Virus record (IMG/VR): IMGVR_UViG_3300036851_000176
Coordinates: 82,626-146,625 of that record
Reading direction: 5' to 3' (one strand)
From: a virus
Length of the DNA: 64,000 nt
A program made the translations under genes and the position numbers. Below, in pieces: positions 5,601-44,546 of the stretch; positions within the stretch are counted from its first letter, which is position 1, and every line of letters starts with the position of its first letter. The notes below the pieces were generated by a model that did not search any database, was not told where the DNA came from, and worked only from the letters and a program-made list of their open reading frames with translations.

Positions 5601-6453
5601 GCCGCTGCTTGGCTTCGAGCAACGACAGGCGTGCGCTCTTCTCTGCAAGGATCGCATCGATCTTCTGGTTCTGAATGTCAACCAAATCGCGCGCATTCTT
5701 GCGTTCCTCGCCAGCAAGATCGCGAGTGGATCTGATGTGTTCCTTCTGGAGCAAGGTCGAAGCGTTCAGAACAGCCTTGAGGCGACCGACAGCGGCGACG
5801 AGCAGACCGACCACGGGGATAGCCTGCATCACGCCTGCGACGAGGGCACCGCCGATCGCCGCCGCTGCCAGTGTTGCCGCCGAGGCCACAGAAATCAGCG
5901 CTGCGGCTAGGTTCAATACCGCCGTGACCAGCGAGAAGATCACGGGAGCCAGAAGGGCTGCTACCGTGTTCATTCGCGTCAGGCTCTTGACGGCGTTGTC
6001 AAATCCTCTCGAAGCGTTGTAGGCGAAGTTGAAGAATGCTCCCTGCGCCTGACGAGTCGCGTAGTCCATATCGCGGACGCCTCGCCTCAGATCGAAAAAC
6101 TGACGCTGGATACCGAGCGCTGCCTGGCGAACTCGTCCAAATCCCTTTTCGAGAGCATTGTTGCTTCTCAGGAGGCGCTGAGTCTCCAAGTCGAGCATGT
6201 GCATCGTATGCACCTTGTCTTTGATCACGGCCACTTCTCTGTTGGCCGCAATGACCGCTCGCTCCGCAGCCTGAGACGAATTTCTGGAGGCTCCGGCCTG
6301 TCTGGTCTGCGAAACCGTCACCCGGTCCGTGGCACTGGACAGCCCTTCGGCTTCGGCCTTGAACGCCCTCAATTCCGCGCTCGCCTTGGCAAGCGTGGCC
6401 GTGAGGTTGTCGCGCCCCTGGAGAATAATTTCAATGAAGTATTCTGCGTCCAT
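2692..6453 (-). CDS. Tape measure protein
   Basis: 1253 aa, Ala/Leu-rich helical protein with hydrophobic stretches; N-terminal IEIILQGRDN and C-terminal GGxV/GEWVLN motifs; tail-module position. Confidence 0.9.
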   Translation of the reverse strand: MDAEYFIEIILQGRDNLTATLAKASAELRAFKAEAEGLSSATDRVTVSQTRQAGASRNSSQAAERAVIAANREVAVIKDKVHTMHMLDLETQRLLRSNNALEKGFGRVRQAALGIQRQFFDLRRGVRDMDYATRQAQGAFFNFAYNASRGFDNAVKSLTRMNTVAALLAPVIFSLVTAVLNLAAALISVASAATLAAAAIGGALVAGVMQAIPVVGLLVAAVGRLKAVLNASTLLQKEHIRSTRDLAGEERKNARDLVDIQNQKIDAILAEKSARLSLLEAKQRLRDMARAEAQDQRELGVLKGNVTQAQQALALAQATGDPAAISAALSQLATAQQQFNAAKNAAAANTQDLEKRRAQLAVQEAAQRQKEATIARQRAVEDAARAKRTGYVTKPQGAAGEDAAQQALKGLDPTERRLLAIVDRFKALWKKATRPLTDAILDAIGDAIQTLEKLFADKNFMAAWRGLATTIGNSIRELARFFTSPEQRAFFTSFINLANKNLPTIVRIFEQIFTLVEKIALAFAPVFSHILGGVSGFLGRQNERAGQPARAGAGFQQNRLGAFAERSQGFLDQFMKFLGAFFHFLGAVIGVAAGPGGTALERMTAAFQRWADELNGPKHQAAREFFLKSIEISGQILEFFGKLIKVLFDLSQNSAFTTFLTDLETIGLPALKHVGEAYGGLFRILAVAASQPGLKQITEIFVALVLASKIVPGVGFALRQIIRGLARGTAALAARVGASRISGAIGKFLNPEVTAIEQTAAAELAAKAAQTATLVEAITLGGAGGGFSGRKMGKAEGDAYWKARDAERALGRETVTTTTRLGRLRGALNRWGARLPIVGGIMTRNLLPATNSLILKLGLRAGLAGVALIAGYELSKVIRRIPILGGALQGLGKILGSLAYDAVQWTKRVAKAAADSPLGAPGRLAADLFGKGDSGGEATLSPRAMQAYRAWSRAHPHATAKQRQDAFKRFAERYGGSYDQGGEVGGAGLGAAVPITAHVGEWVLNQGQQSQIAHALGLPVGLIKEFLFGKSRGESMSEHIRKRKQARRLLAGVGNLAHGFDNDRMGQWFGFSPDIDDWAGTELGVPGGEGTAAQQKAREARSPLFIDTPLGQYVNLARNDLQYIIKSKGFWIPEYVKRAQGYAGATRAQINAWKRGHVMRGLGIHEGEGGQAAIGAIMRSKLWSYGSGGVVGFQPASVPHQSFAAGGVVARGATPKATGATKQTNQTFEIITASPKVDIDYVMRVAKIHAESG

Positions 6454-19243: not shown

Positions 19244-19338
19244 GTGATGCCTCCGCTTAGCGGCCTGCCAGCGACCTTACGCACTGGTTCTGTTCCCACG
19301 CCAGCGTGCGCCCCGCGCGGCCCCGAAGGGCATTTCAG

Positions 19339-19658
19339 TGGAGCCGCCGGGTATCGAACCCGGGTCCGTCTCGTCCGTACAAACAGATCTTCTAGCAGCT
19401 TCGGGGTGGTATACGCCACCTCCACCAGGGCAGACCTTTGGTCTCCGCGTCACCGTTGAATGGGGTCGGTGTCCCGTCCTACTGGTACATCATCCCGGAC
19501 TTCTGTTCCTACCGGCCGGGGCGGCGCTCGTGGCCGTTAAGCCGCGAGAGGAAGCACGTATGCTTCGTCGTTTCGTTTGCCCTCCGGGCCGGTGCGGTAG
19601 GCCGCAACCCGCTGCGATCTCCTTGCCGTTTTCGAGGCGTCGAATCCAATTCGGCCCC
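19339..19658 (-). ncRNA. ssrA: tmRNA
   Basis: 5' GGGGCCGAATTGGATTCGAC; 3' CCGGG-TTCGATA-CCCGG-CGGCTCCA with G3:U70; internal tag reading ...NDEAYVLPLAA-stop (TAA at 19537-19539). Confidence 0.92.
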
Positions 19659-19665
19659 ACACGGG

Positions 19666-19693
19666 ACTATACACATTCCGGGCGTTTTGTCAA
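19666..19693 (-). promoter_or_regulatory. Promoter of the tmRNA
   Basis: TTGACA-16 nt-TATAGT, 7 nt upstream of the tmRNA 5' end. Confidence 0.8.
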
Positions 19694-20526: not shown

Positions 20527-20562
20527 AAGTGTCAAGTTTTATGGCAAGAAAACTTGACAAAG

Positions 20563-20977: not shown

Positions 20978-20984
20978 AAGTAGG

Positions 20985-21041
20985 TCAGTCCGCCGAGGCG
21001 GACTGGCTAAGACTTAGGCAATACAACTGGTGCGCGAACAT
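20985..21041 (-). CDS. Putative leader peptide of the Tyr-Cys-Leu-Ser tRNA operon (MFAHQLYCLSLSQSASAD)
   Basis: Starts 10 nt after the -10 box; LYCLSLS run; hairpin at 20986-21005 overlaps the stop codon. Confidence 0.8.
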   Translation of the reverse strand: MFAHQLYCLSLSQSASAD

Positions 21042-21051
21042 AACGTGCCGG

Positions 21052-21080
21052 AGTATAGACGAAGATTGCTGATTTCGCAA
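21052..21080 (-). promoter_or_regulatory. Sigma70-type promoter of tRNA operon C
   Basis: TTGCGA-17 nt-TATACT. Confidence 0.8.
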
Positions 21081-21303
21081 GTATCTTCTCTACTTGAGCA
21101 ATCAGAGGTACTCGACGTGAAGAGTTCCGCCGAAGGGGAGGGTGCCATCGAAGAGGAACATTCCAAGTTCGTCACCTTGGTAGGCCAGAATCGAGGGTAT
21201 TTTCCTCGCGATCTTCTTGCTCCAGCGCCCACGCCGAGATGATCTTTCCAAGAGGAGGATCCGGAAAGAGGGGACGACCCAGTTCGTCTCGATCGTCGGG
21301 CAC

Positions 21304-22183: not shown

Positions 22184-22213
22184 TTGGTAGTCATTACACG
22201 TACGATGTATCTG

Positions 22214-22304
22214 TCAGGCGCTAGTCTCCCTTGACCACTCCTGCCTCTCGTCCGCTGGTACCCGCTCGCGAGCGCACGCCGGAATCGAACCGGCCGTCTC
22301 CTGA
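22214..22304 (-). ncRNA. Circularly permuted tRNA-like RNA (YrlA/Y RNA-like)
   Basis: Order: closing stem TCAGG, T-arm GCCGG-TTCGATT-CCGGC, looped acceptor-like stem GTGCGCT/AGCGGAC, D-like GAGTGGTCAA, closing CCTGA. Confidence 0.6.
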
Positions 22305-22306
22305 AG

Positions 22307-22660: not shown

Positions 22661-22709
22661 GCGTGTCATGCAATACACGTTTTTCATGTACAACGTGACA
22701 GTCTTGCAG

Positions 22710-22782
22710 TGGCGCCCCGAGGACTTGCACCCCGTTCGCGCGGCTTAAGAGGCCGGACTCTGGCTCGTTGAGTTAGAGCGCC
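22710..22782 (-). tRNA. tRNA-Lys(CTT)
   Basis: CGGC-CTCTTAA-GCCG; T-loop TGCAAGT. Confidence 0.85.
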
Positions 22783-22790
22783 ATATGTAG

Positions 22791-24136: not shown

Positions 24137-24164
24137 AGTATACATGCCGGAGATGGCATGTCAA
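24137..24164 (-). promoter_or_regulatory. Promoter of tRNA operon A (Met-Glu-Glu-Asp-Gly-Gly)
   Basis: TTGACA-16 nt-TATACT, 6 nt upstream of tRNA-Met; no leader ORF. Confidence 0.85.
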
Positions 24165-43151: not shown

Positions 43152-44546
43152 TCAGTCTTTGTACGGATCGAAGGTGTCGGGCGACGCCATCACGACGCCG
43201 AGAGGTCGCAGCACTTCGAGCACTTCGATGTTCGAGTGCGCCTCGATCACGTCAGCCAGCGGCTTGTACACGCCCGGGCTTTCGTCCGCCCCCGCTCCGA
43301 GCACGCAGATTCCGCGACCCTTGAGGTCGTCGCGCGCGAAATCCCAGTCGATCGCGGCCGTGCTCTTGTCGCGCGTGCGCACCTTGCGCATTTTGTGCTC
43401 GTGCTCGGGCGGCGGCTTGTTTCCCTCCGAGCGAACCTGGAAGTCACAGTCGCGCTCACTACATACCCACATCTTGCGCAACTTGCCCGCCGCAGCAGTG
43501 CGGGACATGACGCGACCGGCCCCATGAGGGGCGCTGCCGATCGCGCCAATGTCCACGACAGTTTTTCCGTTTCGAGACCAGTCCTCATAGGCATCGAGTT
43601 CGATCTCTGACGGAGGCCAAGAAACCTTTCCCTTCACGATCACGCTGATGTCTCCCATGCTTCCGCCGATGAAGGCGGGTTCTGTTGTCAGCGGAGTCGC
43701 CCCCTTGCGCACAACCCATAGCCCGTTCTCGAACCACGCGTAATTGTGATGGTTGTGGACGGTCGCTGTCACTTCGGGATTTCCGAGGATGCCAAGCACC
43801 TGCTCGATTACGAACTCGCGACCTGCATATGCGTACTCGCCCGCGAGTTGCATCGCAGCAACATAGAATGTTCCGAGTTCTTCTTTCGTGCTGAACACGA
43901 CCCCGTTCTCGCTCTCTTTCGTTCGATCGGTGAAATCGAGACCTTCAGCTGCGGCCATGAACCCGGAAGCGATCGAGTGTCCAAGTCCGCGCGAGCCGAA
44001 GTGGTTCGCGATCCAGACGTTGCCTTCGTCGTCGTAGAGCAAGTCCACGTAGTGATTGCCGGAACCGACCGTGCCGAGTTGGGCGCGAGCCTTCTCCTTC
44101 AGGTCCGTTCCAAACTGTCGGTTGATTTCGCTCCAAATTGCGGAGTCGAAAAGTTCATGTTCAACAGGCGTTTTGCTCTTTCCGCCAACACCGAACTCGA
44201 CCTTCTTCTGGATCTCGCGCATGATTGGCTTGAGCCGTTCGACGAACAGGTCAGGCTTCGCGTAGTCCTCGACATCGGTCACGTCCACGAGTTCGTTGAC
44301 GGTGAGGTCCGTGCGCACGGCCATGTTCCCGCACGCGATGTCGTATCCGACGCCAGTCGGGCTGATGTGGTCCTCGTAGGCCACGACGCCGCCGATGGGC
44401 ATCGCGTAGCCGAGATGGTGGTCGGCCATCAAGGCGCCCTTGACCGCCCCCGGGTGGCTCAGACAGTTCGCCATCTGATCGATGGCGTTCTCGTAAGGCT
44501 CGATGCCCTCGGGGTGGAAGACTGTGAAGTTTGGGGTATCAATCAC
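43152..44546 (-). CDS. rtcB: RtcB RNA ligase
   Basis: DHHLGY.MPIGG, GVGYDIACG, QLGTVGSGNHY, HFGSRG, HNHHN, RKGAT, GSMG, HGAGR, DESPGVYK. Confidence 0.95.
   Translation of the reverse strand: MIDTPNFTVFHPEGIEPYENAIDQMANCLSHPGAVKGALMADHHLGYAMPIGGVVAYEDHISPTGVGYDIACGNMAVRTDLTVNELVDVTDVEDYAKPDLFVERLKPIMREIQKKVEFGVGGKSKTPVEHELFDSAIWSEINRQFGTDLKEKARAQLGTVGSGNHYVDLLYDDEGNVWIANHFGSRGLGHSIASGFMAAAEGLDFTDRTKESENGVVFSTKEELGTFYVAAMQLAGEYAYAGREFVIEQVLGILGNPEVTATVHNHHNYAWFENGLWVVRKGATPLTTEPAFIGGSMGDISVIVKGKVSWPPSEIELDAYEDWSRNGKTVVDIGAIGSAPHGAGRVMSRTAAAGKLRKMWVCSERDCDFQVRSEGNKPPPEHEHKMRKVRTRDKSTAAIDWDFARDDLKGRGICVLGAGADESPGVYKPLADVIEAHSNIEVLEVLRPLGVVMASPDTFDPYKD

Follow-up and report, generated by a model that had tools for sequence, protein, structure and literature searches.

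The biosynthetic enzymes of enterobacteria provide the familiar examples of control by leader peptides. The multivalent attenuators of this group, among them the ilvGMEDA (Leu/Val/Ile) and thr (Thr/Ile) leaders together with trpL, hisL, leuL and pheL, respond to the level of transfer RNA (tRNA) as well as to that of the amino acid. In the pyrBI operon of Escherichia coli the leader open reading frame (ORF) runs through the hairpin of a real U-tract terminator, and uridine triphosphate is sensed through pausing of the polymerase. Mycobacteria contain leaderless polycysteine short ORFs (the 'ribulon' of Canestrari et al.), in which a stalled ribosome blocks an inhibitory duplex that conceals the downstream protein gene's ribosome-binding site (10.1101/834739), and in Mycobacterium tuberculosis conditional, Rho-linked termination takes place at translated upstream ORFs (10.1101/2022.06.01.494293). 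Here we analyse leader C, the promoter-proximal segment (21080-20978, minus strand) of a tRNA operon, operon C, in a 64,000-nucleotide stretch of viral DNA (IMG/VR record IMGVR_UViG_3300036851_000176, positions 82,626 to 146,625; hereafter the window), which forms the last 64 kb of a 146.6-kb virus record with 59% G+C. The sequence suggests, with a probability that we put at roughly 0.6, that leader C is a translated mini-gene that gauges how fast Tyr, Cys, Leu and Ser codons are decoded and is coupled to the output of the seven downstream tRNA genes. Full-text searches of the literature turned up no description of tRNA genes being controlled by a leader peptide.

Leader C resembles the enterobacterial attenuators in having a short 5' ORF, a run of codons for several amino acids that is tied to the products of the operon and, in silico, an RNA structure that depends on the position of the ribosome. 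It differs from them in that the genes controlled would be phage tRNA genes rather than biosynthetic enzymes, in that it lacks both a Shine-Dalgarno sequence and a hairpin-plus-U-tract terminator, in that a separate antiterminator was not found, and in that its hairpin lies inside the ORF. Of the hallmarks of a classical attenuator, the leader ORF and the cognate codon run are present and the intrinsic terminator is absent. Leader C would be a variant of leader-peptide attenuation that stands outside the classical family, as the terminator is missing, and that most likely works in a similar way.

With the polycysteine ORFs leader C shares an actinobacterial-type setting, consecutive sensing codons and a short ORF that abuts its promoter and lacks a Shine-Dalgarno sequence; in both, a stalled ribosome prevents an RNA duplex at the sensing codons, for leader C in silico only. 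The two differ in that leader C carries codons for several amino acids, about one for each tRNA gene, and sequesters the 5' strand of a tRNA instead of the ribosome-binding site of a protein gene. Because the downstream genes of operon C are tRNAs, the output must lie in transcription or in processing. The pyrBI system is matched in that the ORF runs through the hairpin and the distance between ribosome and polymerase would decide whether the hairpin forms, but the sign of pyrBI, in which tight coupling gives read-through, is the opposite of that of a supply sensor, and leader C has no U-tract. As with the translated upstream ORFs of M. tuberculosis, leader C has a short ORF (here predicted to be translated) in a 5' leader, and canonical terminators are scarce in the one case and at chance level in the other. 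In contrast, the stretch after the ORF of leader C is 7 nt, which is too short for Rho loading.

Promoter, ORF and codon run of leader C

An earlier, sequence-only reading of this DNA placed a promoter and a short ORF ahead of operon C, and both are where that reading put them, on the minus strand. The -35 hexamer TTGCGA (21080-21075) is separated by a 17-nt spacer from the -10 hexamer TATACT (21057-21052), the promoter scan giving 9 of 12 matches, and an ATG (21041) follows 10 nt on. Transcription is expected to start at about 21046-21043, leaving a 5' leader of 2-5 nt with no Shine-Dalgarno sequence. The ORF (21041-20985) is the only one of at least 8 codons in the 74-nt leader and comprises 18 codons, MFAHQLYCLSLSQSASAD, and a TGA stop (20987-20985). 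Within it lie, as had been described, the seven consecutive codons TTG TAT TGC CTA AGT CTT AGC (Leu-Tyr-Cys-Leu-Ser-Leu-Ser; 21026-21006). The TCC and TCG codons said to follow the run both occur, although not directly adjoining it, CAG and GCC being interspersed. Five codons of the run count as minor in the genes of the phage, where their shares per amino acid are 12% (TTG), 24% (TAT), 6% (CTA), 9% (AGT) and 17% (CTT), and the codons that flank the run in the ORF are major ones.

Operon C (minus strand) opens with tRNA-Tyr(GTA) (20977-20904; ARAGORN, and 43.6 bits in Rfam), followed by tRNA-Cys(GCA) (20902-20829; both methods), tRNA-Leu(CAG) (20821-20735; 41 bits in Rfam, found by ARAGORN, with the anticodon CAG, at a relaxed threshold only), tRNA-Leu(CAA) (20724-20650; both methods), a tRNA-like element that may be Ser(GCU) (20647-20561), tRNA-Leu(GAG) (20527-20445; both methods) and tRNA-Ser(TGA) (20373-20288; ARAGORN), the last gene. 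The proposed gene order Tyr-Cys-Leu-Leu-Ser-Leu-Ser thus has a solid Leu(CAG) gene, whereas at the Ser(GCT) position there is only a tRNA-like sequence; ARAGORN at default settings misses both. The latter element, unverified as a tRNA, has a UUGCUAG loop, a long variable arm and a cloverleaf-like minimum free energy (MFE) fold of -46.9 kcal/mol with an atypical T-loop; it has no Rfam tRNA match even at E<=5, and ARAGORN at relaxed settings misreads it.

Set against these genes, the run has exactly the make-up of the operon (three Leu, two Ser, one Tyr and one Cys), and its order departs from the gene order by a single displaced Leu, which bears out the near-colinearity originally proposed. The correspondence is one of amino acids and not strictly of codons. 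Although 7 of 17 codons are readable by the operon's own tRNAs, among them six of the seven in the run, it is correct that CTA is served by no phage Leu tRNA, the Leu anticodons being CAG, CAA and GAG. TCC is likewise unread and the Ser(GCT) gene is doubtful.

Statistical support for the match

The match between peptide and operon was scored as the best binomial window for the set Tyr/Cys/Leu/Ser. Among 20,000 Markov sequences of genome composition, one reached the enrichment of the leader C ORF (p ~5e-5), and this ORF, itself included, stands among the top 4 of the genome's 1,650 short ORFs for the set. The region is rich in pyrimidines, and an ORF that lies upstream in another frame is also rich in Ser, Cys and Leu; the test was therefore repeated on the leader's own sequence after dinucleotide shuffling, with stop-free stretches counted in whatever frame they fell, and 80 of 20,000 shuffles then reached the observed value (p=0.004). 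For seven codons drawn from the set, exactly this make-up has a probability of 0.024, and, for that make-up, an order this near to the gene order one of 0.06, both figures being post hoc.

The upstream ORF just mentioned (21014-21232, minus strand; 72 codons, GTG start) is read in another frame than the leader ORF, is rich in Ser, Cys and Thr, and runs across the operon C promoter and the pyrimidine-rich spacer. It probably results from the composition of the region, although it scores p=1.4e-5 for the Tyr/Cys/Leu/Ser set.

Sibling leaders in the same array

Two further promoters of the same tRNA array are followed by leaders of the same design. Leader B (23099-22969, minus strand) consists of TTGACT-16-TAAGGT, 7 nt and an ATG (23064) that opens a 31-codon ORF (23064-22969), 25 of whose 30 non-start residues are Thr, Arg, Ala, Val, Lys or Ile; the genes that follow encode Ile, Val, Lys, Arg, Arg, Ala, Lys, Arg and Thr tRNAs. 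Leader D (18885-18784, minus strand) has TTGACA-17-TAACGT, 10 nt and an ATG (18846) that opens a 20-codon ORF (18846-18784) with the core QQHQPNTPWFP, ahead of Pro, Trp, Phe, Gln, His and Asn tRNAs. In all three leaders, therefore, the ATG lies 7-10 nt after the -10 hexamer (7 in B, 10 in C and D).

Each of leaders B, C and D contains a single ORF of at least 8 codons, and each of these matches the amino-acid set of its own operon only, the window probabilities for a leader against another operon's set being at least 0.09. The Markov null was reached by 0, 1 and 0 of 20,000 sequences for B, C and D, which rank 1, up to 4 and up to 2, respectively, among the 1,650 short ORFs. Under local shuffling in any frame B (4 of 20,000; 2e-4) and D (11 of 20,000; 5.5e-4) are both stronger than C, and the joint probability of B, C and D is ~4e-10. 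Leader C has a real amino-acid match, which, taken jointly with those of B and D, is not due to chance.

Sigma-70-type promoter matches are enriched in the array (5 found against 1.9 expected) and not elsewhere in the window. The remaining two array promoters sit right before the mature 5' ends of tRNA(CAT) and of the transfer-messenger RNA (tmRNA) and have no leader; leaders are therefore not needed for expression as such. These two promoters (24137-24164, TTGACA-16-TATACT, and 19666-19693, TTGACA-16-TATAGT; both minus strand, 11 of 12 matches each) stop 6-7 nt short of the mature ends, and tRNA(CAT) and the tmRNA may thus be made without a 5' leader that needs removal.

Predicted folding of leader C

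A GC-rich hairpin of 8 bp (21005-20986, minus strand; CAGTCCGC-CTCG-GCGGACTG in the DNA, CAGUCCGC-CUCG-GCGGACUG in the RNA) lies inside the last codons of the ORF, covers the first two bases of the stop codon and is separated by 8 nt from tRNA-Tyr (20977). The sequence-only reading had taken this hairpin for a terminator. The hairpin and its overlap with the stop codon are real, but no U-tract follows (the tail is ACCUACUU), and the terminator scan of leader C called no terminator-like site on the minus strand. As canonical hairpin-plus-U-tract sites elsewhere in the phage are at chance level (13 against 13.8 expected and 21 against 14.5 expected), the missing U-tract is weak evidence either way. 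Because the hairpin is inside the ORF, it would be melted by a ribosome arriving at the stop codon, the reverse of the classical trp layout.

The MFE fold encloses this hairpin in a composite long-range helix (21032-20966, minus strand) that sequesters the first 12 nt of tRNA-Tyr. In this helix CACCAG (21032-21027) pairs with CUGGUG (20971-20966), and GCCUAAGU (21019-21012), which corresponds to the Cys-Leu-Ser codons of the run, pairs with ACUUGGGC (20981-20974). The leader free of ribosomes is predicted to adopt this fold at -36.2 kcal/mol, and the helix is lost when a ribosome footprint is masked on any of the seven codons; two folds therefore exist in silico, with the composite helix present when no ribosome is on the run and absent when one is. 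For the arms of the hairpin themselves the folding showed no other pairing partner. When the leader was folded with the whole of tRNA-Tyr, the 5' strand of the tRNA stayed paired with the leader.

The leaders, each folded with 14 nt of what follows, are more stable than shuffled sequences, with z=-3.2 (B), -4.2 (C) and -2.6 (D). The pairing gain, defined as the energy won by pairing the first 13 nt of a tRNA with the 60 nt before it, amounts to -18.5 kcal/mol in the case of tRNA-Tyr, the highest among the 27 tRNAs of the array (the next being -10.3) and significant against shuffles (p=0.01). Pairing of the leader with the first tRNA was also considered as a trait common to B, C and D and was dropped, the refined test picking out C only. 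No Rfam family, T-box, riboswitch or other leader, matched 21080-20978 even at E<=5.

Analogous leaders in other phages

Leaders of comparable layout occur in two unrelated cultured phages. In Cellulophaga phage phi38:1 (NC_021796) short ORFs (L062, 35253-35411 and 36729-36912) precede tRNA blocks; that ahead of the Lys-Ile-Gly-Asp-Thr-Val-Arg block contains MKTIMNIATDIRTKGVK and that ahead of the Ser-Asn-Phe block contains NNFSWYSNCSFSSYN, and they rank 6 and 1, respectively, among 842 short ORFs. Each is followed by a canonical hairpin-plus-T-tract terminator ahead of the first tRNA, in contrast to the leaders of the present phage, which have none. For block 3 of phi38:1 the candidate ORF was rejected as not significant (rank 252 of 842), and in the automated scan another ORF there reached 6.5e-7. 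A tRNA splicing ligase is among the genes of phi38:1.

In Mycobacterium phage Blackbrain (Bixzunavirus; MK878897, record positions 90815-90957; L104, 4816-4958) the ATG of MFEIRPPEPRWRYQPSLGR, a leaderless ORF of 19 codons, comes 7 nt downstream of TTGCGC-17-TACCGT, and the ORF lies 45 nt before tRNA genes for Pro, Trp and Tyr (p=7.9e-5 among 57 tests); the spacer after the ORF is C-rich and G-poor. Phages Darko, Alice and ArcherS7 carry a variant with a diverged promoter and 5' half, in which a GTG stands 7 nt behind a separate -10, TACGCT; the frame is preserved through a 12-nt indel, and the core PRWRYQPSLGR is kept. As start codon, frame and core are all retained in so diverged a variant, the sequences point to selection for translation of the leader ORF in that lineage. 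An 11-nt perfect complement, GCGATATCAGC/GCTGATATCGC, connects the Trp-Arg-Tyr-Gln codons of the Bixzunavirus leader with the pre-tRNA spacer; a structural role for it was rejected, as the complement is outside the MFE fold and the stability of the leader is like that of shuffles (z=-0.8). A link to Rho is more plausible for the Bixzunavirus leader and for leader D than for leader C, since both have C-rich spacers.

The leaders of the array and those of phi38:1 and Bixzunavirus have in common a short ORF that lies between a promoter and the first gene of a tRNA block and is enriched for the amino acids of that block. What sets leader C apart from the phi38:1 and Bixzunavirus leaders is the near one-to-one, near-colinear match of codons to genes and the helix with the 5' strand of the first tRNA.

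Five other tRNA arrays (L033, L057, L060, L103 and that of Streptomyces phage Karimac) served as negative controls in the same automated scan, four of which gave nothing comparable and one, L103, a borderline result. The arrays of L033, L057 and L060, which like L103 belong to distant relatives, have no clearly matched leader, and neither does Karimac, in which the tRNAs are scattered among genes. L103 (IMGVR_UViG_3300047313_000015; 6120-6173 of the reversed locus) has a Thr-rich ORF, MTATDFTATGLQVCLNI, 55 nt before four consecutive Thr tRNAs, which are followed by Gln, Gly and Leu tRNAs; this match is borderline (p=1.1e-3 among 174 tests).

Close relatives of the present phage were sought with the two ORFs adjoining the leader, the glycosyltransferase, the major capsid protein and an 878-aa protein as queries; the last returned distant relatives only, with 45-80% identity in the best segment. 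An exact match to the 20-nt hairpin was found once in IMG/VR, inside an unrelated coding region without tRNAs, and was set aside as chance.

Genomic context of the array

The proteins encoded in the window include a major head protein, a tape measure protein, RIIA/RIIB and the tRNA ligase RtcB. Its nearest relatives in culture infect Arthrobacter, Microbacterium and Streptomyces and are all very distant, which makes an actinobacterial host of the phage likely.

The array (24130-18016, minus strand) comprises the tmRNA and 27 tRNAs or tRNA-like genes. ARAGORN at default settings reports 24 tRNAs, to which Rfam adds tRNA(CAT) (24130-24058) and Leu(CAG) (20821-20735). A good tRNA-Lys(CTT) of 74 bases lies in the spacer 22661-22789 (minus strand), where it is detected by ARAGORN with the -ps95 option only and missed by default ARAGORN and by Rfam. 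Between Lys(TTT) and Arg(TCT) the spacer 22184-22305 (minus strand) holds a T-arm-like remnant, GGTTCGATTCCGG, that resembles a decayed tRNA gene. Within operon C a perfect 10-bp inverted repeat (20531-20558, minus strand; GTCAAGTTTT-CTTGCCAT-AAAACTTGAC) separates the Ser(GCU)-like element from tRNA-Leu(GAG) and could serve in termination, in internal processing or as part of a promoter. For the tmRNA (19338-19658, minus strand) the tag peptide given by ARAGORN, ETTKHTCFLSRLNGHERRPGR, is seemingly out of frame, and the neighbouring frame reads GKRNDEAYVLPLAA-stop, with the usual ...LAA ending of a tag.

The RtcB-type tRNA ligase gene lies at 43152-44546 (minus strand; phrog_1075, E=9e-69). A tRNA ligase and a tmRNA encoded by the phage itself fit with selection by tRNA damage, and these two genes together with a near-complete tRNA set suggest a phage adapted to hosts that damage tRNAs.

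Discussion

The core of the sequence-only reading, in which leader C is a probable sensor of tRNA supply, is supported by the statistics and the context presented here, in particular by the sibling leaders B and D, by the analogues in phi38:1 and Bixzunavirus and by the minor codons of the run; the terminator and a strict codon match are not supported. The sensor could work as follows. Transcription would start a few nt before the ATG, and a ribosome would load without a Shine-Dalgarno sequence. If the cognate tRNAs were scarce, either because the high-GC host has few tRNAs for rare codons or because host tRNAs had been cut by a defence nuclease, the ribosome would dwell on the seven, mostly minor, codons (21026-21006). 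With a ribosome on the run the long helix with the post-stop segment and the first 12 nt of tRNA-Tyr would, as predicted in silico, not form, and the tRNAs would be made. If reading were fast the ribosome would reach the stop codon and leave, and the free leader would adopt its fold of -36 kcal/mol, with lower output as the consequence. Candidate steps for this 'off' output are non-canonical or factor-assisted termination, Rho, a block to RNase P and attraction of a nuclease. The net result would be a supply sensor with negative feedback. We favour this sign, in which slow decoding turns the operon on, because the test codons are minor and supply would then be self-limiting.

Several observations weigh against this proposal. 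The match of leader C taken alone reaches only p=0.004 once local composition is controlled, and the out-of-frame ORF 21232-21014 (minus strand) of this pyrimidine-rich region is also rich in Ser, Cys and Leu. No tRNA of the phage reads CTA or TCC, and the Ser(GCT) gene is in doubt. The ORF lacks a Shine-Dalgarno sequence, and a distance of 10 nt from the -10 hexamer to the ATG implies a leader of 2-5 nt, which is not a true leaderless start. The hairpin lacks a U-tract and lies within the ORF, and neither inspection nor constrained folding found a classical antiterminator for it. The inner hairpin stays intact under stalls at UUG, UAU, UGC or CUA, and only those. The pairing gain is not significant for leaders B and D, and a plain duplex test of the whole leader against the first 14 nt of the first tRNA gave no significant result for any leader (p=0.28-0.53). 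Trapping of tRNA-Tyr alone would bring no obvious control over the six tRNAs downstream. Finally, searches of IMG/VR, the metagenomes of the Joint Genome Institute (JGI) and a set of 5.8 billion proteins found no close relative for comparison.

It could be argued that the same sensor operates with the opposite sign, in the manner of pyrBI, the hairpin in the ORF being a weak terminator that could be suppressed only by a ribosome close behind, so that fast decoding would allow read-through and slow decoding would bring termination. Indeed, the hairpin lies within the last seven codons and covers the stop codon, as in the pyrBI leader, and a ribosome at the stop codon or at AGU, CUU or AGC would melt it, whereas a stall at UUG, UAU or UGC spares it. 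Against this stand the missing U-tract, the fact that replacement tRNAs would be shut off just when they are needed, and the minor codons of the run, with which the operon would begin in the off state. We consider this sign improbable.

Equally, leader C may be a structured 5' leader that serves processing or stability only, as a determinant for RNase III or RNase P or as a protective hairpin, in which case the ORF would be untranslated and its match incidental. The strength of the structure (z=-4.2), the inclusion of the tRNA-Tyr 5' end in the helix, and a start that has no Shine-Dalgarno sequence and is not exactly leaderless speak for such an explanation. It leaves unexplained, however, the amino-acid match in three operon-specific leaders and in two unrelated phages, as well as the two promoters of the same array that need no leader, and is in our judgement unlikely.

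That an ORF rich in Leu, Tyr, Cys and Ser arose by accident in a pyrimidine-rich spacer would accord with the local-shuffle result for C alone, with the Ser/Cys/Leu-rich ORF upstream in an overlapping frame and with the post hoc nature of the order and make-up statistics; it is made very improbable by the joint probability of ~4e-10 with B and D from local shuffles, by the match of each peptide to its own operon only and by the fixed short distance from promoter to ATG in all three leaders. Small phage proteins are common, but an 18-residue functional protein unrelated to tRNA control is hardly credible for a low-complexity sequence without a homologue, when three different peptides each mirror the neighbouring tRNAs.

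For more than 50 years it has been asked why phages carry tRNAs, and the explanations now offered are compensation for codon usage and escape from defences that cut tRNAs (eLife 2023, PMC10264068). A VapC toxin specific for tRNA-Cys is described in PMC13096801. The leaders considered here lead us to a broader reading, which we hold tentatively and at a little less than even odds, in which phages carry a multi-channel gauge of tRNA supply with about one test codon for each tRNA gene, ribosome dwell deciding whether the leader folds back onto the first tRNA and the operon is shut off. Such a gauge would seem to have evolved independently in phages that infect Actinobacteria and in those of Bacteroidota. 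To our knowledge the regulation of phage tRNA genes has hardly been studied, and, if the reading is correct, these genes would be under an autogenous feedback control read by translation, of which we found no published account. Leader-peptide attenuation would then extend from amino-acid metabolism to the tRNA pool, and leader C would be a compact natural sensor of codon-specific decoding speed. As the Bxz1-like mycobacteriophage analogue infects Mycobacterium smegmatis, the idea can be tested in a standard laboratory system. Phages would, on this account, measure a shortage of tRNA and respond to it, making replacement tRNAs on demand, where those of the host are rare or have been cut by anticodon nucleases, and shutting off their synthesis once they are supplied.

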